Positions 2,826 through 48,761 of a stretch of DNA of 64,000 nt are shown in pieces. This DNA comes from Candidatus Parcubacteria bacterium. Lineage in GTDB: Bacteria > Patescibacteriota > Minisyncoccia > Minisyncoccales > JAGMDC01. The stretch spans positions 87,187 through 151,186 of the forward strand of contig JAGMAD010000006.1 in the NCBI GenBank assembly GCA_023130975.1, read 5' to 3'. The notes beneath the pieces are model-generated. The model did no database searches and was not told the DNA's origin. It worked only from the letters and a program-made list of their open reading frames with translations. The translations under genes were made by a program, and so were the position numbers. Every line of letters starts with the position of its first letter. The stretch's first letter is position 1.

Positions 2826-2915
2826 AATATCATCTGTAGTTTATTTTATCACAAAAACCAAATTTCTACAAAAAAACGACTATGGTTTTACAGCCGTCTT
2901 CATTAAAGATTAAAT

Positions 2916-2953
2916 CTGTCACAAATCAGTACGATCGTTCTATTTTGTGACAG
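2916..2953 (-). terminator. Hairpin downstream of rpoC (10-bp stem CTGTCACAAA/TTTGTGACAG)
   Basis: Perfect 10-bp inverted repeat with an 18-nt loop containing the palindrome ACGATCGT. A moderately U-rich tract follows on the minus strand. Confidence 0.45.
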
Positions 2954-2967
2954 TTTAAAGATCGCTC

Positions 2968-5900
2968 CTATTTCTTAAAGCCTGTGCCGGCCGGGATTAG
3001 TTTGCCGATAATAACATTTTCTTTCAGTCCCTTTAATTTATCTTTTTTGCCCTCTAAAGATGCTTTGATTAAAACTCGTGATGTTTCCTGAAAAGAAGCA
3101 GCAGACAAGAAACTGTCTGTGGTCAAAGACACTTTTGAAATTCCAAGTAAGACCTGCTGGGTCTTGATTGGTTTTTTCCCCTCTTTTTTGAGACGAGCAT
3201 TTTCTTCAGCCACTTCTGCCTGCTCTAAAATTTCTCCTTTAAATAAGAAACTCTCTCCTGGATCTTTAATTTTTAAGCGGGAGAACATCTGGCGGACAAT
3301 GATTTCAATGTGTTTATCATGAATAACTGCTCCTTGGGAAGCGTAAATGTTCTGAATCTCTTTGACAATATAGCGCTGGGTCTCTTTAAGTCCAACTAAT
3401 TTAAATAATTCTCTTAAGTCTAAACTTCCTTCGCAAAGCTGCTCTCCTTTTTCAATATTTTCTCCGACTTTTACCCAGACAGCTCTTTTTCCCGGAAGCT
3501 TGTATTCAACAACTTCAGATTCTTCTTTCTTCGTTTTCAATTTTGGGTTTTGGGATTTGGGATTTGTTTGGGATTTGGGATTTGGGATTTGGGATTTTAC
3601 TCTAATTATCCCTTCTGGCGTTATATCGGTTACTTTCCCATCTACTGAAGAAACTAATGCTTTTCCCGAAGGAACCCGGGATTCAAAAACTTCCTCTACT
3701 CGAGGCAGGCCCTGGGTGATGTCGCCAGCGCTTGCTACTCCGCCAGTATGAAAAGTCCTCATAGTAAGCTGGGTGCCCGGCTCTCCAATGGCCTGGGCAG
3801 CTACAATTCCTACGGCCTGTCCTGTCTTGACTAATTTGTTTTTACCAAGATCCCAGCCATAACATTTTCGGCAAATTCCTCTTTTTGACCTACAGCTCAC
3901 TGGAGAACGGACACTTAATTTTTCAATTCCGGCATCAATAATTTCTTTCGCTTTTTCTTGATTAATAATCTCTTCTGTCTTTACGATAGTTTTGCTTTTG
4001 TCTTTTGATTTAAGACCTGGGACTTTGATATCTTCCAGGGCCACCCTTCCAATAATTTTAAAAAGGAAATCTTGATTGGATTCATCAGCGTCTTTTTTAA
4101 AAACAGTAATTCCTGTTTTATCTTTACAATCTTCCTCTGTTATTATTACTTCATGAGCTACATCAATCAACCGTCTGGTAAGATATCCAGCTGTAGAAGT
4201 TCGCAGAGCAGTATCAGTTGTTCCTTTTCTGGCTCCATGAGTAGAAATAAAATACTCTAAAGCATTAAAACCTTCTTTAAAAGAACTCTTCACCGGCAAT
4301 TCAATAATTTGACCAGCCGGGTTAATGACTAAACCTTTCATACCAGACATCTGAACCGGCTGAGCCCAAGAACCCCTGGCTCCAGAATCAACGATAGAGA
4401 AAACCGAGCCCAAGGGAGGCAGGGCCTGGGGAACCAGTTTTTCTATCTGAGATTTAGTTTTTTGCCAAACCTCAATGGTTTTAGCCACTCTTTCTTCTTT
4501 AGACAACAATCCTTTTTTATAGTGTTTATATATTGTTTCTACATCTTTTTCCGCTTCTTTTACCAGGGTTTTCTTTTCTTTAGGAACAATTAAATCATCC
4601 ATCCCCCAAGTAATACCAGACAAGGTTGAATAATTAAAACCCAAGTCCTTAATTTTATCAAGACAACGTCCAACGGTCTCATTATCGTAGCTTTCAATAA
4701 TATTATTAACTATTTTTTCTATTTTTTTTGCATTCACTCCCTCATTAACAAAAGGATAATTATCCGGAAGAGTTATGTTGAAAAGAATTCTTCCTACCGA
4801 TGTTTCTTTTAATTCTCCTTCTTTGAATCTTACTTTTATTTTCGCCCTTAAATCCACTAAGCCGGTATCTTTAGCTAAAATTGCTTCATTTTTAGAACCG
4901 AATATCTTGCCCTGGCCAAGAGCATCTTCCTTTATTTTAGTAATCCAATAACAGCCAAGAACAATATCCTTATTGGGTGTAGATACCGAGGTTCCGGTAG
5001 CTGGTTTTAATAAATTAACAGTAGAAAGCATCAATTCTCTGGCTTCTTTTTGCGACTCATCTGAAAGAGGTAAATGAACTGCCATCTGGTCTCCGTCAAA
5101 ATCAGCATTAAAGGCGCCGCAAACCAAAGGATGAATTCTAATTGCCTCGCCTTCAATAAGAACAGGTTGGAAGGCCTGAATTCCTAAGCGATGCAAAGTA
5201 GGCGCTCGGTTTAATAAAACCAATTTATCTTTGACAACCTCTTCTAAAATAGCCCAGACATCATCTGTTTCATCTTCAATAAGCCGGCTTGCCCCCCTGA
5301 CATTGTAAGCTAATTCTTTATCTAAAATGCCTTTAATAACAAACGGTTTAAAAAGTTCCAGAGCCATTTTTTTAGGCAAACCACACTGGTTGAGTTTTAA
5401 GTCCGGCCCAACCACAATCACTGACCTGCCGGAATAATCTACTCTTTTTCCTAAAAGATTTTGTCTAAACCTGCCTTGCTTTCCTTTAAGCATATCGGCC
5501 AAGGATTTTAAAAGCCGCTGACCACCGGTAGTTGCCTGAGTCATTGTTCCTTTTCTCATTGTATTATCTATCAAAGCATCTACTGCTTCCTGAAGCATTC
5601 TTTTTTCGTTCCTAACAATAACTTCCGGAGCATTAATTTCTAAAAGATATTTTAAGCGATTATTTCTATTAATTACTCTTCGATAAAGGTCATTTAAATC
5701 AGAAGAAGCATATCTCCCTCCGTCTAACTGAACCATTGGTCTTAAATCCGGAGGCAAAACAGGAAGAACTGTTGAAAACATCCATTCAGGACGGATATCT
5801 GCTTCTAACATTTTTTGGAGCATTCTTAATCTTCTCAAAAATTTTCTCCGCAACAGCAAAGAGCTTTCTTTTTTTTCTCTGGGATCATCTTTTTTTTCTC

Positions 5901-10205: not shown

Positions 10206-10234
10206 AGTATATTCTATTTCCTTAAAATTGTCAA
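10206..10234 (-). promoter_or_regulatory. Sigma70-type promoter upstream of rpoB
   Basis: The minus strand reads TTGACA (10234-10229), a 17-nt spacer, then TATACT (10211-10206). The start codon lies about 135 nt downstream. Confidence 0.6.
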
Positions 10235-10325
10235 CCCCGCACCTTTTCTGGATATCCAAACTTGATAAACAAGTTTGGTAATCGTCAAACTTTATGTTTG
10301 ACGGAAATCCAGAAAAGGTGCGGGG
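10235..10325 (-). terminator. Perfect three-helix palindromic element (probable terminator or insulator)
   Basis: A 19-bp outer stem (10235-10253 with 10307-10325) encloses hairpins CCAAACTTG-ataaa-CAAGTTTGG and CGTCAAAC-tttat-GTTTGACG. It starts immediately after the upstream stop codon and ends at the -35 box. Confidence 0.6.
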
Positions 10326-10961
10326 TCAAGTTTTTAAAATCATTATTTCCCTTCCTTCTTTTGGCAAGTCCTTTCTTTTTATAGATAATTTATTTTGTGA
10401 CTCAACTGATTTTCCACCCATCACTTTTAAAAAGTCATCTACTTTTTTCAATTTTACTTTTAGCTTTGGAATATGATAAAACATAGGGATGACAATTCTC
10501 GGCTCTATCTGGCTGACAATCTTTGCCGAAACTTGAGCATCTTCGCCTACCGGCACCATTAAAATATCTACATTGCCTATTTTTTCCAATTGTCCGTTTT
10601 TTAATTCTTTCTCTTTGATAGAACCTAAATGGCAGACCCGTATTCCCTCTGCTTCAATAATATAAATATTGGCTGCTTCGTTTTTGCCTTTTTCTTTTTC
10701 ATTTGCTTCTATTGATATTCCTTGGATAAAAACATCTTTTATATCATACTCACCCGGTTCATCAATGAAAAAATAATCTCTCGTTTTAATTTTGCCGGCA
10801 TCGCAGTTTTTATTGGTGAACAATAAAATATCCGATTCCAGTTTCGGCACATTTAAACCAATATCATTCTGAAAAGGGTCAATAACTATTTTTACAGAAC
10901 TATCTTTTCCCTTGGCAGTAATGATTTGAAAACAAGATTGACCAAACCAAGTAATATTCAT
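10326..10961 (-). CDS. MBL-fold (UPF0173-like) protein with a degenerate metal-binding motif
   Basis: 211-aa ORF. The N-terminus MNITWFGQSCFQI..KIVIDPF resembles beta-lactamase-fold hydrolases. The expected HxHxDH position reads FTNKNCDAG. Confidence 0.5.
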   Translation of the reverse strand: MNITWFGQSCFQIITAKGKDSSVKIVIDPFQNDIGLNVPKLESDILLFTNKNCDAGKIKTRDYFFIDEPGEYDIKDVFIQGISIEANEKEKGKNEAANIYIIEAEGIRVCHLGSIKEKELKNGQLEKIGNVDILMVPVGEDAQVSAKIVSQIEPRIVIPMFYHIPKLKVKLKKVDDFLKVMGGKSVESQNKLSIKRKDLPKEGREIMILKT

Positions 10962-15346: not shown

Positions 15347-16372
15347 ATGGAAAAATCACCGATTATTGAAATCGTAAAAAGGGCCTGTCCAGCTGTTATC
15401 ACTATTGTTATTTCTAAAGACCTTCCTAAAATAGAGGGCTTTTATATGCTTCCTTTTGGCGGTCAGAGTTTTGTGGTGCCTAAAATAGAAAAAGGCAGGA
15501 AAGAAAAAACAAAAATCGGGGGCGGCTCTGGTTTTATTATTTCTTCTGACGGTTTGGTTCTTACCTCCCAGCATGTAGTCGGAGATCCCCAGGCCGACTA
15601 CACAGTTATTTTAGAACCAGAGAAAAAATATTCTGCCAAGGTGTTAGCCCGCGACCCAATCAACGATATCGCTATATTAAAAATTCAAGCTAAAAACTTG
15701 CCATTTTTAGAGTTGGGCGATTCAAACCAAATTGAACTTGGTCAAAGCGTGATTGCTATTGGCAATGCCTTGGGAGAATTCCATGATACAGTAAGCACTG
15801 GCATTGTCTCTGGACTAAGCAGAACTATTACTGCTTTTAACAGCATTGCCCAGCAAGCAGAGAATTTAAGAGGCCTGATTCAGACCGATGCCGCTATCAA
15901 CCCTGGCAATTCCGGCGGACCCTTGGTTGATATTGAGGGAAAAGTTATTGGCCTTAATACGGCTATGGTCGCTATGGCTCAAAACATTGGTTTTGCTATC
16001 CCCATAAATTATGCTAAAAAGGATTTAGCAGAAGTAGAGAAATATGGAAAAATCAGAATGCCTTTCTTGGGTCTGAGATACATTCTTCTAAATAAAGAAA
16101 TAGCGGAAAAAAATAAGCTGCCGGTTAATTACGGCGCCTTGGTTGTTAGAGAGGCCCTGGGCGAATCAGCTGTGGTTAAAGGTTCAGCAGCTGAAAAAGC
16201 TGGCTTAAAAGAATTTGATATCATTTTGGAATGCGCAGGCAAAAAAATCACTGCCGATAATCCTTTGTCATCTATTTTACAGGAACACAAAATAGGAAAG
16301 GAGATTGGATTAAAAATTTTAAGAAACAAAAAAGAAATATTAACCAAAGTGAAATTAGAAGAAAAAAAATAA
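15347..16372 (+). CDS. HtrA/DegP-family serine protease with PDZ domain
   Basis: 341-aa ORF with a trypsin-like core (..TSQHVV.., DIAILKI, GNSGGPL) and a C-terminal PDZ-like segment. Confidence 0.85.
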   Translation: MEKSPIIEIVKRACPAVITIVISKDLPKIEGFYMLPFGGQSFVVPKIEKGRKEKTKIGGGSGFIISSDGLVLTSQHVVGDPQADYTVILEPEKKYSAKVLARDPINDIAILKIQAKNLPFLELGDSNQIELGQSVIAIGNALGEFHDTVSTGIVSGLSRTITAFNSIAQQAENLRGLIQTDAAINPGNSGGPLVDIEGKVIGLNTAMVAMAQNIGFAIPINYAKKDLAEVEKYGKIRMPFLGLRYILLNKEIAEKNKLPVNYGALVVREALGESAVVKGSAAEKAGLKEFDIILECAGKKITADNPLSSILQEHKIGKEIGLKILRNKKEILTKVKLEEKK

Positions 16373-16431
16373 ATGTTTAGAGGCCGAATCCCTAAACATT
16401 GAAAATCCCGGCTGAAAATGGCTGGGATTTT
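16372..16431. terminator. Tandem hairpins between the htrA-like gene and the tRNA pair
   Basis: The first hairpin is AATGTTTAG/CTAAACATT (16372-16400), overlapping the TAA stop. The second is AAAATCCCGGC/GCTGGGATTTT (16402-16431), flanked by A and T runs, so it looks bidirectional. Confidence 0.6.
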
Positions 16432-40000: not shown

Positions 40001-43000
40001 AACCATCAACTGAAAGAGCTATTCCAGTGCCAGTGGTAATTGAATCACCAGTTAATTCAAGAAGCCCTGTAGTATCATTGGAAACAACATCAAGTTTGTA
40101 ATCTGGGCTGGTGGTGCCGATGCCCAGGTTGCCGCCAAAATAGGCGTCTCCGCTGCCGGAGATGTTGCCGGCGCTGAATAAACCCCCAGAACCGATATTA
40201 ACCCCACCGCTAATCTGGAGTTGGCCCTGAGCGATAATGTCATTTCTTACCTGCAGATTTCCTGCCTCTAAGCTGTGCACCACTCCTGATGTAGCCTCTA
40301 TTCCTGAGACATCGATTACCTTAAGGTCATCGCTGTCCACATCAACCACATAGGCATATCTACCTGAGACATAGACAGAGTAAGGGCCAGTGCCAATGGC
40401 TAAACTCCCGGCTAAGCTGGGTGAAGTCGGGTCTGAGACATCGATTACCTTAAGGTCATCGCTGCCAAGATCAACCACATAGGCATATCTGCCCGAGACA
40501 TAAACAGAGCGAGGCAGAGTGCCAATACCTAAGCTCCCGGCTAAGCTGGGTGAAGTGGGGTCTGAGACATCGATTACCTTAAGGTCATCGCTGTCAGAAT
40601 CAACCACATAGGCATATCTGCCTGAGACATAAACAGAGTAAGGGTCAGTGCCAATGGCTAAACTCCCGGCTAAGCTGGGTGAAGTCGGGTCTGAGACATC
40701 GATTACCTTAAGGTCATCGCTGATAGAATCAACCACATAAGCATATCTGCCTGAGACATAGACAGATATAGGGGCAAGGCCAATGCCCAAACTCCCGGCT
40801 AAGCTGGGTGAAGTCGGGTCTGAGACATCGATTACCTTAAGGTCATCGCTGACAGCATCAACCACATAGGCATATCTGCCCGAGACATAAACAGAGCGAG
40901 GCAGAGTGCCAATACCTAAACTCCCGGCTAAGCTGGGTGAAGTCGGGTCTGAGACATCGATTACCTTAAGGTCATAGCTGATAGAATCAACCACATAAGC
41001 ATATCTGCCTGAGACATAGACAGAGTAAGGGTAACTGCCAATGCCCAAACTCCCGGCTAAGCTGGGTGAAGTGGGGTCTGAGACATCGATTACCTTAAGA
41101 TCATTGCTGCTAATATCAACCACATAGGCATATCTGCCCGAGACATAGATAGAATAAGGGCCAGTGCCAATGCCCAAACTCCCGGCTAAAACAGGGTCTG
41201 CGGGTAATTGAAGGAAATTGCCTTTCTCAATAGTCAATTTCTCACTTGGGCTGGTGGTGCCGATGCCGACATTAGCATTAAGTATGTTAATCTCATCTGT
41301 TGCTTGATTGTCAAACTCTATTCTTCCAGCGCTTCCACCCAATCCAATCCAGGCATCATCTGGCATAACAATATTTCCGCTTGATGATATTGACAATGCT
41401 CCAGCTGTTATAGTTCCAGTTGTTGTTAAATTCTCATCGTCAAAAGATATGTCGCCGCCAGTGGCAGTAAAAGTTAAATCACCGCTGCTGTCCACTGCCA
41501 CAGAAAGATAATTAGAAGCGTCATAGGCGACAGTGAGTTGAGGAGTGCTTGTTGAAGTGATTGTTGTTTGGCCGCCATTAGCAATAACAAAGTTGTCTGT
41601 GCCATCGGTTTGGAAACGAGCAATATTGCCTGTACCTTGCTGATCTACCCGCAAGCCGTCTGATGAAGAAGTTGCTGTAAAAACAGCAGAGCCGGAATAG
41701 GTCTGGGCGCCGCTAACAGTAAGGTCGCCGCCGACAGTAACATTACCGTCTGTTTCAACTGTAAAGTTAGTGTCGCCAACAGTTAGGTCAGCACCAGTAA
41801 CATCCAAGCCAGCAGTAGCATCAACATTTCCGCCAAGTGTAATCTGGCCTGTTGATTGAGTCAAAGTATTATTGATGGTCACTGGTCCGCTAAAAGTAGA
41901 AGTGGCAGCCACGGTTAATTTATCAGAAGTTTCTCCGCCTAAGACAGTATCGTCGCCAACTCCTAAATCATGAACAGCAGCAGAACCAGAAACGCCTAAG
42001 GAAGCAAAAGTGCCATGTCCGCCAACCTGAACTCCTTGCGAACCAATATATATTGGAGCGCTGGAAACAACTGTTTGAGGAGGAGTGGCTTGAAGTTTTT
42101 TAGTAATTTTTTGGAGGGTTTCTATATCAGCTTCCCAACCAGTGATTTCAGCTAATTGGGTTTTGAATTCAGCCAATGATTCCTCGTCAAGAACTTTTAA
42201 TTCTTTAGTGATTTCTTTGATGGGTTCTATTTGGGTAATTTTTTGAATCTCTTTGATAATTTCTTTTTGAGGCAGACCTTCTCTTTCCATTTTTTCAATC
42301 CTTGCCTGAAGGATTTCTAATTCTTGTTTTAACTCCTCATCTATTTTTTCTTTTTCAGCAACGATTTTCTTTTCTGTCCTCCCCCCCCAAGGAGAAACGA
42401 GAAACTCGTATGCTTTAACAAACGGACTTTTGATTGCCTGATATGTCTGGCTTAATTTTTGTTCTATCGCATCATTGGTATTTTGATATCCTTGTTTGAA
42501 AGTAATGCCTGTCTTGACTATTTTCTGGCCAATGTTTGACGGTGCTTCTTTTATTATTTTACCTACAACAACGGCCTGTTCTCCATACCATTGGCTAAAT
42601 CTTTGAAAAACATTAATGCCGTATTTGAGGTCGTCGCCTGTCTCGCCAGTTACCTCGGCTAAAAAGGAGTAAGTACTCTTACTTGTTGACAAAATACTTG
42701 CTCCTAAATCATAAAAGTAATTTTTTGTTTCTGCCTTTAATTTGTCTGACTCTATTATTACTTTTTTCCTCCATTTATTTAATGATCTATTCATTTCTGC
42801 TAAAAATTGACTGAGAAATGTTTTTGAATTTGCTAAAGAGGTATCTATTACTGTTTTTGAGTTTATCACAGAACTGCCTATTATTGTTGTTAATTCATCC
42901 AAAACATTGTCAGCTTTTTGAGAGACAACCGATAGTCCTTTGGAGCTAATGCCGGCAACAAAACTCATTGTTTGTTTGAAATCCTGAACCGGATGCAAAT

Positions 43001-45549: not shown

Positions 45550-45719
45550 ACCCCCCACCACTTTTGTTCCAAAAGTGGTGGGGGGAAAAATAGCCCAAGG
45601 CTGGGGGCAAAACTTCAGTTTAAAACCATAGTTCAGAATTTCTCTGAGGAATAATCCGGCACTACCTGGGTTATCCGTTAACTAAGGGAAATTCCTACGT
45701 CCCCAGCCTTGGGCTATCT
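45543..45719 (-). ncRNA. Candidate small structured RNA (about 175 nt), identity unknown
   Basis: It has its own TTGACA-16-TATAAT promoter. A 17-bp perfect closing helix (45590-45606 with 45701-45717) encloses about 94 nt containing short hairpins. It ends with U5, a 15-bp GC hairpin and UUUAUU. Confidence 0.5.
45551..45585 (-). terminator. GC-rich hairpin (family 2 palindrome), U-tract on the minus strand only
   Basis: Sequence is CCCCCCACCACTTTT-gttcc-AAAAGTGGTGGGGGG. The minus strand continues TTTATTCTCC and the plus strand continues AAAAATAG. Confidence 0.65.
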
Positions 45720-45725
45720 ACCTTA

Positions 45726-45753
45726 ATTATAATGGATATTATGAATTTGTCAA
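45726..45753 (-). promoter_or_regulatory. Consensus sigma70-type promoter pointing at the candidate sRNA
   Basis: The minus strand reads TTGACA (45753-45748), a 16-nt spacer, then TATAAT (45731-45726). Confidence 0.6.
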
Positions 45754-45799
45754 CCCCCACACCAAACGAACATAGCTCTGTTATGGTGTGGGGGTTGAC
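45749..45799. repeat. GC-rich palindromic element (family 1): GTCAACCCCCACACCA..TGGTGTGGGGGTTGAC
   Basis: 16-bp arms with a 19-nt spacer. It shares CCCCCACACCAAACGA(A/G)CAT with the element at 48296-48363. Confidence 0.85.
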
Positions 45800-46982
45800 C
45801 CTTTTGTTTTTGTTTGTTGGTTTTTTGTTTTTTGGAGTCGGTTTTAATACCGATTTTATTTTAGCTGATGAATCGTCTAAGGTAGTAATCAACGAAATTG
45901 CATGGATGGGCACAAAAGAGTCGTATAACAATGAGTGGATTGAATTATACAATAATAGTGAGACGTCTGTAAATCTTGACGGCTGGATATTAAAAACTAA
46001 TGACGGCAGTCCGGAAATTGAATTAACAGGCAGAATCTCGGCTAAAAGTTTTTATTTATTGGAAAGAACTGACGACGAAACAGTAGCTAGTATTTTAGCT
46101 GACCAAATCTATAAAGGAGGATTGGCTAACAAAGGCGAATATTTGAAGCTTTTTGATGAACAGGGAAATTTGATTGACGAAGTGGAATGTTCTGATGGTT
46201 GGTTTGCCGGAGACAATAAGACCAAACAAACAATGGAAAGGTCTGTTGAAGTCAAACTTCAACAACCTCATTGGCAGACAAGCCAAAATCCCGGGGGCAC
46301 ACCAAAAAAACAGAATAGTCAGCTAGCTGAGGAAGCGGTTGAGGTCAAGCCTAAACATCCTCAAGGAATTATTACCTATCCTGGTGGTATAGTTGTGAAC
46401 GAAGTACTCCCCTCTCCTGAAGGCCCTGATGCAGAAAATGAATGGATAGAAATTTTCAATGAAAATATCTTTGAGGTTGACATTTCTGGTTGGAAAATTT
46501 CTGACACAGTAGGCAGTGTTAAGAGTTATACTTTTTCCAAAGGAATAAAAATTTCCGGCAAAGGGTTTTTGCTTTTCAACAGGCCAGAAACAAAAATTAC
46601 TTTGAATAATAGCGGTGAAGGAATAAAAATTTTTAACCCTAATGGAGAAATCGCTGATGAGATAAATTTTGGAAAAGCGCTTTTGGGACAGTCGTATAAT
46701 AAGTTTGAGTCTCAATGGCAGTGGTCAGAAAATTTAACACCCGGCTCTGCGAACATCGCTTCTGAAATAAAAAAAGAAATTTCAGAAGACAGTGCCCCAG
46801 AGATTATAGAGAAGAATCTGGAGGAGAACAAAAATCCTCTCTTATTATCTTCGCTGTTAGGATCTCCGTTGTCAAAGAAGAACAAGAATCCTTTATTTAA
46901 ATTGTTAATGATTGCTTTATCTATTGCTGTTTGTTTTGGTTTTTTAATTTTATTTTTAAAAAAGAAATTGAAAACTGATTAA
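45783..46982 (+). CDS. Lamin-tail-domain (LTD) protein with two LTD modules and a C-terminal TM helix
   Basis: Contains VVINEIAWMG..NEWIELYN..LDGW and IVVNEVLPSP..NEWIEIFN..ISGW. The probable start is the ATG at 45783 (MVWGLTLLFLFVGF signal anchor), and the track start is 45732. Confidence 0.6.
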   Translation: MVWGLTLLFLFVGFLFFGVGFNTDFILADESSKVVINEIAWMGTKESYNNEWIELYNNSETSVNLDGWILKTNDGSPEIELTGRISAKSFYLLERTDDETVASILADQIYKGGLANKGEYLKLFDEQGNLIDEVECSDGWFAGDNKTKQTMERSVEVKLQQPHWQTSQNPGGTPKKQNSQLAEEAVEVKPKHPQGIITYPGGIVVNEVLPSPEGPDAENEWIEIFNENIFEVDISGWKISDTVGSVKSYTFSKGIKISGKGFLLFNRPETKITLNNSGEGIKIFNPNGEIADEINFGKALLGQSYNKFESQWQWSENLTPGSANIASEIKKEISEDSAPEIIEKNLEENKNPLLLSSLLGSPLSKKNKNPLFKLLMIALSIAVCFGFLILFLKKKLKTD

Positions 46983-47761: not shown

Positions 47762-48256
47762 ATGATTATTATAGGTATTGATCCGGGAACTGCCACAACC
47801 GGATATGGAATTATAAAGGCGAAAAACCTAAAGCGAAAAGCGAAAAATAATTTAAAATGCCTGGGTTACGGCTGCATTAAAACCAGTCCGGAATTTAGCG
47901 ACGGCGAACGATTAAAAAAAATAAATCAGGAACTAAACAAAATAATTCGAAAATATAAACCAAAAGTTTTAGCAGTAGAAAATGTTTATTTTTTTAAAAA
48001 CCTGAAAACCGCCATGCCAGTAAGTCAGGCCAAAGGAGTAATATTATTCACGGCCAGCCGTAAAAAAATTCCTATTTATGAATTTACACCACCCCAGGTT
48101 AAAATGGCGATTACGGGCTACGGAAGGGCAGAGAAAAAAGAGATTCAGAAAACAATAAAAAGCATTCTGAATTTAAAAGAAATACCAAAATCAGATGACG
48201 CGGCAGATGCTTTAGCCATAGCGGTCTGTTATACAATCCTTGTAAAAACGAGTTAA
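47762..48256 (+). CDS. ruvC: Holliday junction resolvase RuvC
   Basis: 164-aa ORF starting MIIIGIDPGTATTGYGII and containing ..AVENVYF.. and ..DAADALAIA. Confidence 0.9.
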   Translation: MIIIGIDPGTATTGYGIIKAKNLKRKAKNNLKCLGYGCIKTSPEFSDGERLKKINQELNKIIRKYKPKVLAVENVYFFKNLKTAMPVSQAKGVILFTASRKKIPIYEFTPPQVKMAITGYGRAEKKEIQKTIKSILNLKEIPKSDDAADALAIAVCYTILVKTS

Positions 48257-48283
48257 TGTTTAGAGTTTGAGCCTCTAAACATT
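48255..48283 (+). terminator. Hairpin AATGTTTAGAG/CTCTAAACATT overlapping the ruvC stop codon
   Basis: 11-bp stem with a 7-nt loop. It uses the same sequence as the hairpin at 16372-16400. Confidence 0.5.
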
Positions 48284-48295
48284 GAAAGGGGTTGA

Positions 48296-48363
48296 CCCCC
48301 ACACCAAACGAGCATAAATTTCATTTGTTTGCGCATAGCGCAATGCTCGTTGTGGTGTGGGGG
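48296..48363. repeat. GC-rich palindromic element (family 1), about 20-bp arms with one bulge
   Basis: CCCCCACACCAAACGAGCAT pairs with ATGCTCGTTGTGGTGTGGGGG. An inner hairpin TTGCGC-ata-GCGCAA is present. GGGGTTGAC flanks both sides. Confidence 0.85.
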
Positions 48364-48391
48364 TTGACAAGATATCTAAAAAAAATATAAT
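48364..48391 (+). promoter_or_regulatory. Consensus sigma70-type promoter for the small acidic protein gene
   Basis: TTGACA (48364-48369), a 16-nt spacer, then TATAAT (48386-48391), directly abutting the 3' arm of the palindrome. Confidence 0.6.
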
Positions 48392-48479
48392 GGTGGTATA
48401 GATAGGAAAAGGTCGATAACAATTAGAATAGAAATTAAAAATCACTCTTTTTTTATAAAGAGTGATATACTTTAAAATT

Positions 48480-48761
48480 ATGATTTACGAATTTATTGGT
48501 CAAGACACAGAAGGAGGAGGAGAAGAGGAAGAAAAAGAGAAAACTCCTGCTTCTACCGAAGAAGAAACTGGTTCTGAAGAAGTAACTAGCCAGGACACAG
48601 GAGTAGGAACTCCTGAAGAAGGTACTACTGAAGGTACTCCTGAAAGCGCTCCTGAAGGCGCTCCTGAAACTGAAGAAGGTAAGAGAGAAGAAGAGAAAGA
48701 GGGTGAAAAAGAAGGTGAAGAGGGCGAAAAAGAAGAAGAGGGAGAAACTCCGGTTGTATAA
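48480..48761 (+). CDS. Small polyacidic low-complexity protein (Glu/Gly/Thr/Pro-rich)
   Basis: Sequence is MIYEFIGQDTEGGGEEEEKEKTPASTEEETGSEEV..EGEKEEEGETPVV. It is bracketed by a consensus promoter and a strong terminator. The track start is the GTG at 48462. Coding status is not certain. Confidence 0.4.
   Translation: MIYEFIGQDTEGGGEEEEKEKTPASTEEETGSEEVTSQDTGVGTPEEGTTEGTPESAPEGAPETEEGKREEEKEGEKEGEEGEKEEEGETPVV

Follow-up and report, generated by a model that had tools for sequence, protein, structure and literature searches.

The DNA examined here, a contiguous 64,000-nt stretch of a Candidatus Parcubacteria contig that we refer to as the window, raises the question of why long GC-rich hairpins should be joined without a single intervening base to the -35 boxes of three promoters. 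An earlier note on this DNA had described three GC-rich hairpins ending exactly at TTGACA with a -10 box downstream, and our analysis confirmed all three, here called sites A, B and C, as they had been described (Table 1). The 20-mer CCCCCACACCAAACGA(A/G)CAT that the same note had reported to be common to two of the hairpins is indeed found in both B and C. The motif that makes up the module of arm and hexamer matches three times in the 64-kb window compared with 0.05 matches expected in shuffled sequence, in which no shuffle reached three, and all five occurrences of GGGGTTGAC in the 64 kb lie within the three elements. Predicted folding energies of the hairpins lie between -34 and -61 kcal/mol (z-scores between -6.4 and -12.8), the site A element being folded into a stem of 23 bp with two inner sub-hairpins (-61.5 kcal/mol, z -12.8). 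Copies in the window measure 41–91 nt; together with the 10 kb beyond the window start, in which no further hairpin copy was found, this amounts to three copies in ~74 kb of this genome.

Table 1 Coordinates of the hairpin elements and of the promoter features next to them, in positions of the window.
Feature	Position	Strand	Details
Site A module GGTGCGGGGTTGACA	10229-10243	minus	17-nt spacer to TATACT; upstream of rpoB
Site A element, type 1, 91 nt	10235..10325	minus	terminal inverted repeats CCCCGCACC (10325-10317) and GGTGCGGGG (10243-10235)
Site A left TTGA copy	10326..10329	minus	includes the TGA stop of the MBL-fold gene lying upstream (10326-10961)
Site A -35 TTGACA, rpoB promoter	10229..10234	minus	10231-10234 is the right TTGA copy; hairpin-free in L255, L256 and L257
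Site A -10 TATACT	10206..10211	minus	17 nt after the -35; resident, outside the element; kept in relatives
Site B module GGTGTGGGGGTTGACA	45748-45763	minus	then 16 nt, then TATAAT; before a candidate small RNA
Site B element, type 2, 41 nt	45754..45794		repeats CCCCCACACC (45754-45763) and GGTGTGGGGG (45785-45794); strand unassigned
Site B -35 TTGACA, candidate small-RNA promoter	45748..45753	minus	
Site B -10 TATAAT	45726..45731	minus	16-nt spacer; resident; conserved in L124 and L130
Site C module GGTGTGGGGGTTGACA	48354-48369	plus	16-nt spacer to TATAAT, whose last base is 48391
Site C element, type 2, 68 nt	48296..48363	plus	repeats CCCCCACACC (48296-48305) and GGTGTGGGGG (48354-48363)
Site C left TTGA copy	48292..48295	plus	GGGG just before, 48288-48291
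Site C -35 TTGACA	48364..48369	plus	first four bases are the right TTGA copy
Site C -10 TATAAT	48386..48391	plus	16-nt spacer; resident; conserved in L124, L127 and L130

The hairpins belong to an element of 40–110 bp that ends in CCCCGCACC...GGTGCGGGG (type 1, site A) or in CCCCCACACC...GGTGTGGGGG (type 2, sites B and C). On the left side of the hairpin, a TTGA in direct orientation is also present at site A and at site C, which is located between ruvC and an ORF for a 99-aa acidic protein; in RNA of the promoter strand of these two sites, the flanking TTGA/TTGAC can lengthen the stem via G-U pairs. The flanks of site B are inverted rather than direct (TCAA at 45750-45753 vs. TTGA at 45795-45798), so that it reads GTCAA-CCCCCACACC...(41 nt)...GGTGTGGGGG-TTGAC. 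This element lies inside the called N-terminus of an LTD-domain ORF (45732/45741-46982, plus strand), and the candidate small RNA behind its promoter is conserved and unclassified. Sites B and C have opposite orientations relative to their promoters.

Orthologous loci of relatives, retrieved via the MBL-fold protein for site A and via RuvC for site C, display the same promoters without the hairpin. At site A, L256, in which the neighbouring protein is 86% identical, reads AAAAGC-TTGA-CAATTTCAAGGAGATAGAATATACT, i.e., the left flank of the window, one TTGA and the right flank of the window, and its single TTGA is both the stop codon and the start of the -35 box (AAAAGC-TTGA-CAATTTC). A single TTGACA without hairpin is found in L257 as well, and in L255 (90%) the site reads TTGA-TGAAATCA-TTGA-CAATTT, where the sequence between the two TTGA copies is possibly a footprint. 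The hairpin of site C is missing from L124 (90% identical; ...CACTACGGGGG-TTGACAAAATTTCTAAAAAAAATATAAT), L127 (86%; ...AAGGCC-TTGACAAGTTCTCTTAAATAAATATAAT) and L130 (78%; ...AAAGCC-TTGACAAGTTTTTAAAAACACATATAAT), all of which carry TTGACAA, 16 nt, TATAAT and the same conserved leader downstream; the hairpin-free site in L124 retains GGGGG before TTGACA. At site B, L124 harbors a decayed orthologous copy with TCAA on both sides, and L130 lacks the element and keeps GGGGTTGACA; the insertion at site B is older. Empty sites made up of the two flanks and one copy of the duplicated tetranucleotide are thus represented by L256 for site A and by L127 and L130 for site C. Polarity was assigned by parsimony over three or four relatives, and a clean empty site could also be obtained via precise deletion between two TTGA copies. 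The GGGGG in L124 and the TTGA-TGAAATCA-TTGA in L255 hint at repeated gain and loss and not at one simple event. Past TTGACAA, the copies have no sequence in common.

The family extends well beyond this genome. A genome collection containing one genome per species was scanned for CCCCRCACC-N18-48-GGTGYGGGG(N)TTGAC; the right-hand TTGAC was forced in this pattern, and its promoter statistics therefore hold for that subset only. At least 118 loci were found where we estimate about 4 to be expected by chance. The matches listed derive mostly from Saccharibacteria, Parcubacteria and other Patescibacteria, and also from Omnitrophota, Planctomycetota, Elusimicrobia and Nitrospirota, with 3–5 listed loci each from several genomes, and the family ends in CCCC(C)RCACC...GGTGYGGGG(G). 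The arms are complementary over their 9–10 nt ends, which are fixed by the scan patterns, and pairing extends inward through family-specific sequence. The earlier note had proposed a genome-wide search for the module with a downstream -10 box, and the association it anticipated is evident: TANNNT occurs 15–19 nt downstream in 79 of the 108 low-GC loci listed (73%) vs. 12% for other TTGAC in the same loci, and the position profile of these 108 loci is TTGACA-17-TGnTAnAAT. The gene downstream is co-directional in 77 and opposed in 19 of the same 108 listed loci. Given both the -10 enrichment and the direction of the downstream genes, the hexamers abutting the hairpins are very probably true -35 boxes. 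Among the matches listed, the upstream gene could be assessed in 91 related loci, 62 with a co-directional and 29 with a divergent gene, which agrees poorly with a hairpin that acts purely as a terminator.

Metagenomes were scanned for CCCCGCACCTTT-N12-42-AAAGGTGCGGGG with unconstrained flanks, a pattern that covers the type-1 CCTTT...AAAGG subfamily only and yielded at least 111 distinct copies. An outward TTGAC adjoins 18 of the 111 copies listed in this unconstrained sample, and a -10 box follows in 13 of these 18 flanks vs. 11% of the other flanks of the listed copies. Since the share of copies on TTGAC is only 16%, promoter targeting is a bias and not a rule, and we infer that it reflects target preference combined with the survival of harmless insertions. 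Long open frames contain 26 of the 111 copies listed in the unconstrained sample. A search of viral contigs with type-2 arms gave eight matches, all GC-rich with unrelated flanks and none from this hairpin family, and a full-text literature search for the arm sequences found no paper.

The sequences flanking the copies carry the marks of mobility. When only the right TTGAC was forced, as in the genome scan, a left TTGA was present in 76 of 107 copies listed. In the unconstrained metagenome sample, identical 4-mers on both sides were observed for 42 of the 111 copies listed, as opposed to a mean of 6.1 and a maximum of 15 in 2000 permutations, and flank identity among these listed copies peaks at 4 bp (k=3, 8; k=4, 42; k=5, 2). 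All but one of the 42 duplicated 4-mers in the copies listed conform to TNNA, and they comprise TTGA/TCAA (17), TTTA/TAAA (15), TTCA/TGAA (6) and TTAA (3), i.e., a consensus of TTNA; the other TNNA classes, which constitute 35% of the background, are absent from the duplications listed. TTGA/TCAA accounts for 41% of the listed duplications vs. 15% of background TNNA sites (2.8-fold enriched), and a G directly precedes TCAA in 10 of 10 listed copies with TCAA as the left flank, so that the preferred target is TTGAC. Flank 4-mers are not identical in 62% of the copies listed in the unconstrained sample, which could result from decay, from adjacent copies, or from a mechanism without obligatory duplication. 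Furthermore, the asymmetric interior occurs in both orientations within unchanged TTGA...TTGAC flanks: two copies in L074 are 97% identical as reverse complements and 72% identical directly, and the corresponding values for L006 and L070 are 99% and 72%. Adjoining tandem or nested copies have one TTGA or TGAA in common (L015, L027, L117). Terminal inverted repeats, an abutting target duplication, presence and absence at orthologous sites, and a small, non-coding, multi-copy nature are among the defining traits of MITEs, and these four were found in this family, with site B of the window as the exception regarding the target duplication. For a fifth trait, a longer autonomous element that has the same ends and encodes the transposase, the gene-bearing elements described below are candidates.

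Taken together, these observations make it likely that the hairpins are a small mobile palindromic element, similar to a MITE, that was inserted into the -35 boxes of pre-existing promoters. The element would enter at TTNA tetranucleotides and duplicate those 4 bp, and its target at sites A and C would have been the TTGA of an existing sigma-70 -35 hexamer (TTGA|CA), resulting in the order TTGA-element-TTGA-CA. Because the right TTGA copy is placed before the resident CA, an intact TTGACA would be rebuilt, with its spacing to the resident -10 box unchanged. The left copy would be a leftover scar that at site A still provides the stop codon of the upstream gene, and the duplication would thereby have preserved both features, the left copy retaining the stop and the right one the -35 box. 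According to this scenario, the G-rich arm joined to TTGACA marks the point at which the right inverted repeat of the element meets the duplicated part of the target -35 box. The junction would recur because TTGA(C) is the most enriched target and because insertions that regenerate the promoter are harmless and hence survive. Restoration of the promoter by the duplication would explain why the element tolerates or prefers -35 boxes. If the hairpin affects upstream read-through at all, this would be a by-product.

A possible source of the mobility is indicated by longer relatives of the hairpins. Elements of 300–430 bp with the same end repeats enclose an ORF of 85–95 aa (L117, L148/L244, L199, L229), and a further GIY-YIG-bearing copy is cut by the end of its locus (L120). 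The enclosed ORFs all encode single-domain Pfam GIY-YIG proteins (E 1e-16 to 1e-18). Flank duplications of gene-bearing copies are TCAA in L117 and TGGA in L229, exact 4-bp flank repeats being present in only two of six such copies. A profile of the enclosed proteins detects thousands of homologues in Omnitrophota, Phycisphaerae, Sedimentisphaerales and Patescibacteria, a phylum range that matches that of the hairpins. Three homologues were picked by protein similarity alone, and all three are bracketed by CCCCGCACCTT..AAGGTGCGGG or its variant CCCTCACC..GGTGAGGG, with the arms CCCCGCACCTTTT...AAAAGGTGCGGGG in L269 and CCCCGCACCTTCT...AGAAGGTGCGGGA in L273 and the variant arms CCCTCACCTTTT...AAAAGGTGAGGG in L266. 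One arm is located on each side of the GIY-YIG gene, and both arms pair with each other. The nearest solved structures of the protein in the PDB are the UPF0213 proteins 1zg2 and 1ywl, and no NCBIfam family reached its cut-off for it. Across ~74 kb of this genome, comprising the window and an adjoining 10 kb, neither a GIY-YIG gene nor another transposase was detected. The short hairpins appear to be gene-less derivatives of the longer element, and the GIY-YIG nuclease, or a host enzyme together with it, would move the short copies in trans. GIY-YIG nucleases are hydrolases, and we know of no case in which they catalyse transposition. We tentatively raise the possibility, which we regard as somewhat less probable than its opposite, that the hairpins derive, by loss of the gene, from an unrecognised kind of bacterial mobile element that has a single-domain, Ssn-like GIY-YIG nuclease of ~90 aa as its sole gene, inserts at TTNA with a 4-bp duplication, and is spread across Patescibacteria, Omnitrophota, Planctomycetota and other phyla. 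A literature search on GIY-YIG transposons or MITEs returned nothing closer than the Ssn paper (PMC11893778).

The best reading of the hairpin family in terms of known systems is that it resembles yet differs from the Ssn/NTS (CGTC-tagged REP) systems. Ssn proteins are single-domain GIY-YIG nucleases of ~94 aa that cut single-stranded DNA next to NTS/SRM hairpin repeats; these repeats exist in hundreds of copies and flank the ssn gene, an IS-like repeat-gene-repeat layout noted by the authors themselves (Chenal et al. 2025, PMC11893778). CGTC-tagged REPs are the same repeats as NTS/SRM and are without a dedicated transposase (Di Nocera et al. 2013, PMC3733652). By term search, target-site duplication and Patescibacteria are absent from the former paper (PMC11893778), and 'promoter' appears there only in the context of an expression construct; nor does that paper report a 4-bp TTNA duplication, empty sites or insertion into a -35 box. 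Likenesses include a single-domain GIY-YIG gene of ~90 aa accompanied by GC-rich, multi-copy, mostly intergenic hairpin repeats, the succession of tag and stem (CGTC-AT-TCCCGCG in NTS vs. (T/C/A/G)GTC-AA-CCCCGCAC here), and a distribution across phyla including Planctomycetes. However, SRMs are 20–50 nt long with stems of 8–9 bp and loops of 4–5 nt, whereas stems here reach up to 23 bp and loops span 20–75 nt. Complete hairpins flank the ssn gene on each side, whereas here the gene is bracketed by single, mutually pairing arms, a variant form of the gene-flanking arrangement of Ssn. Neither strand of the window matches the published SRM pattern, HGTCWYN(0-2)YYVSBRHN(0-5)WNVSBRGN(0-2)RNCYNB; GTCAAC conflicts with its Y position, and its loop limit of 5 nt is greatly exceeded. 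Ssn proteins (about 90–100 aa) are assigned to the CDD family cd10448, and the best PDB matches of the protein described here are UPF0213 proteins, so that it may belong to either group.

Other repeats and insertion elements offer partial parallels. Correia repeat-enclosed elements of Neisseria are short MITEs with terminal inverted repeats and a short target duplication that form a hairpin when transcribed. They sit beside genes and influence promoters and terminators, and their ends carry promoter hexamers and duplicate TA. In contrast, the element described here carries no promoter hexamer, the -35 box being restored by the target duplication, and it shares neither sequence nor host phylum with Correia elements. 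In the hybrid promoters formed by insertion sequences, an IS end supplies an outward -35 box that is combined with a chance -10 box in the target. The likeness is that the end of a mobile element lies directly beside a functional -35/-10 pair, but in the present case the -35 and the -10 hexamer are both of target origin, and insertion merely breaks up the -35 box and copies its first four bases. Integron attC sites, IS200/IS605 ends, DNA-uptake sequences and Tn3-type GGGG ends, as generally known, were rejected as candidates based on sequence or geometry (R' GTTRRRY unmatched, duplications present, opposite end polarity, no fixed cleavage tetranucleotide). REP/REPIN repeats with their RAYT tyrosine transposases are likewise short, multi-copy, extragenic palindromes, copies of which border a small gene dedicated to them, but their defining GTAG tag is absent here and REPs are without flanking target duplications (described in part in PMC3733652). 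The sole Y1 transposase seen, a Y1_Tnp gene beside tyrS (L124, 12262-12963), was rejected as a RAYT/IS200 lead; it is flanked by a different, unrelated hairpin, and among the loci retrieved by then the gene matched only L124 and L125, the two loci from that relative. RPE-4 and RPE-6, two Rickettsia palindromic elements, are CGTC-tagged REPs (PMC3733652). Such elements are palindromic repeats that may reside in frame within coding sequence, comparable to site B in the called LTD N-terminus, but sequence and host are different and translation of site B is only predicted.

The earlier note had suggested a portable terminator-plus-promoter cassette, in which the hairpin would travel with its promoter, shielding the downstream gene from read-through and driving it strongly. 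Portability of the hairpin family holds up, but the promoter is not part of the moving unit, and we consider the cassette very improbable. The position of three copies of the window at consensus promoters, the -10 boxes that accompany copies in many genomes and the high stability of the hairpins would all agree with it. However, the same -35/-10 pairs exist hairpin-free in relatives, which in our view already refutes it, and nothing past TTGACAA is common to the copies. Moreover, the interior occurs in either orientation relative to the promoter, 84% of the copies listed in the unconstrained sample do not adjoin TTGAC, and the upstream gene is divergent in 29 of the 91 loci considered among the matches listed. 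Hairpins A and C are followed by TTGACAA... without a T-run, so that they are not canonical intrinsic terminators, and both are missing from a terminator scan; a T-rich tail is found only on the plus-strand side of site B. We give equally little credence to the note's second idea, namely that the G-rich arm is a DNA element that activates the promoter, such as an upstream or extended -35 element or a site recognised by a sigma region or transcription factor. GGGG does precede TTGACA at some sites lacking the hairpin (site C in L124, site B in L130 and L124), but GCC or AGC occupies this position in the orthologous promoters of L127, L130 and L256. As these promoters are intact without the hairpin, the arm is dispensable for the promoter, which argues against such an element. 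The same arms are also found away from any TTGAC, and an arm never occurs without its complementary partner, whose distance varies, as is typical of an inverted-repeat element and not of a fixed protein site.

Two further explanations concern the hairpins themselves. They might be kept for a host function as targets of Ssn-type nucleases acting on single-stranded DNA, like NTS/SRM in Neisseria, with their position at promoters being incidental; examples of such functions are modulation of the uptake or recombination of transforming DNA and stabilisation of RNA 3' ends. Reliance of Patescibacteria on DNA uptake would be in line with this explanation, as would the small single-domain GIY-YIG genes bracketed by the same arms and the type-1 hairpin that forms a terminator-like 3' end after the T2SSE gene in L124. 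In addition, arm and flank (GTCAACCCCGCAC) resemble NTS (GTCATTCCCGCG; PMC11893778), and the TGTC/CGTC tag of CGTC-REPs is the reverse complement of GACA/GACG (PMC3733652). On the other hand, the published SRM pattern is without a match in the window, stems and loops are much longer than those of SRMs, the ~74 kb examined of this genome yielded no GIY-YIG gene, and copy density is low (3 in 74 kb). We therefore judge a retained host function unlikely, while noting that it is compatible with a mobile origin. Least probable of all, and barely tenable, is that the hairpins evolved in place as RNA structures, e.g., terminators or processing sites, and are alike by convergence, using G-U pairs (GUUGAC with GUUGAC) of the transcribed strand. 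The G-U extension of the stem by TTGA/TTGAC on the promoter strand at sites A and C would be expected under this explanation, but not the recurrence of exact 9–10 nt arms across phyla (at least 118 loci vs. about 4 expected), direct repeats of varying sequence as flank 4-mers, variable presence at orthologous sites, or interiors inverted between copies. There is also no Rfam match for the hairpins: in the window only tRNAs pass the gathering score, with relaxed thresholds adding weak generic-hairpin matches far below gathering scores, and seven related loci returned tRNA and rRNA genes only.

The probable insertion of a mobile palindromic element into resident promoters replaces the regulatory story of an insulating terminator-promoter cassette with the simpler one of a junction between transposon and target, in which the promoters are ordinary resident sigma-70 promoters. 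Annotation of these hairpins as small RNAs, terminators or regulatory sites is unwarranted without further evidence. Copies on TTGAC point to probable genuine promoters (TTGACA-17-TGnTAnAAT) in organisms for which hardly any have been mapped. Beyond this locus, a cross-phylum hairpin family with hallmarks of mobility exists in CPR, Omnitrophota and Planctomycetota, lineages whose mobile DNA is poorly known, and it is tied to a tiny GIY-YIG gene. The Ssn/NTS literature notes an IS-like layout and shows neither target duplication nor empty sites; the hairpin family could supply both and could offer a tractable test system. If the tentative assignment to an unrecognised kind of element is true, a GIY-YIG nuclease would be the engine of a cut- or copy-and-insert transposon, and the long-orphan palindromic repeats of the CGTC type would gain a mechanism of mobilisation.

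In the closest relative (L124), a copy of the type-1 hairpin family forms a terminator-like hairpin 3' of the T2SSE gene and has TAAA on either side. The position after this gene is occupied by a different hairpin in the window. Two further stretches in relatives may be footprints of earlier element copies: TTGA-TGAAATCA-TTGA at site A (upstream of rpoB) in L255, and CACTAC-GGGGG-TTGACA at site C (the promoter of the acidic 99-aa ORF) in L124. The left flank of site C in the window likewise carries GGGG ahead of TTGA. In metagenome loci such as L142, L156, L160, L190, L204 and L210, a type-1 subfamily is enclosed by a larger palindrome that reads GCGAATTNAA-[element]-TNAATTCGC. The same outer arms also surround the copy in L269 that bears a GIY-YIG nuclease ORF, and the outer palindrome may represent a composite or an older outer repeat.

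Coordinates of the features discussed, by locus
Feature	Locus	Position	Strand	Remark
Candidate small RNA, ~170 nt	window	45551-45720	minus	16-bp closing helix, between promoter and hairpin
Site B	window	45732-45800		in frame in the called LTD N-terminus
Leader of acidic 99-aa ORF	window	48395-48480
Second hairpin family, copy at end of ruvC	window	48255-48283
Second hairpin family, other copy	window	16372-16400
Tandem repeats, ~130 nt	window	40310-40980		within 2162-aa LVIVD-repeat ORF
Type-1 copy	L124	7722-7786		3' of T2SSE gene
Possible footprint	L255	4640-4665		site A
Possible footprint	L124	10520-10545		site C
Palindromic insertion	L257	~2880-3040		rpoB 5' leader
Y1 transposase gene, 233 aa	L124	12262-12963		between tyrS and PBP gene
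Small GIY-YIG gene	L070	4640-5030		no bracketing arms
Small GIY-YIG gene	L094	6480-6880		no bracketing arms
Small GIY-YIG gene	L026	2330-2720		no bracketing arms

Other repeats and palindromes were found alongside this family. The palindromic insertion in the relative L257 has the arms AAGGGTGTGGAGTTCGAACCAGAGTCAA and TTGACTCTGGTTCGGACTCCTCACCCTT and belongs to a different repeat family. A second hairpin family in the window, AATGTTTAGAG...CTCTAAACATT, overlaps or begins at the stop codons of ruvC and of ORF 15347-16372; its ruvC-end copy is also kept in the relatives L124 and L127. These hairpins could be terminators or another repeat family. Tandem repeats (CATCGATTACCTTAAGGTCATCGCTG...) were also observed.

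An IS200/RAYT-like (Y1) transposase gene is present in L124, preceded by a GC-rich palindrome, GGGACAGGGGAGGGAC...GTCCCTCCCCTGTCCC, that is unrelated to the hairpin family; the window contains no such gene. Small GIY-YIG genes also occur outside the arms: those of L070, L094 and L026 lie between duplicated tRNA-like segments, a placement that suggests a distinct mobile or intron setting linked to tRNAs. A 2026 paper reportedly deals with group I introns in the tRNA genes of Patescibacteria.

The candidate small RNA has the consensus promoter of site B on one side and, on the other, the strong hairpin CCCCCCACCAC...GTGGTGGGGGG, after which comes TTTATT. The relatives L124 and L130 also keep the candidate, and a comparison of this minus-strand candidate with Rfam returned no family match. 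The leader of the acidic ORF, which is kept in three relatives and may be regulatory, includes among its conserved parts GGTCGAT and a hairpin, AATCACTCTTTTTTTATAAAGAGTGAT, directly ahead of the start codon. Site B itself falls in frame inside the N-terminus as called for the LTD-domain protein, in L124 as in the window, and an alternative start of this protein (ATG at 45782) falls within the right arm of site B, immediately ahead of a membrane-spanning segment. By analogy, the in-frame placement of site B recalls the in-frame palindromic elements of Rickettsia.
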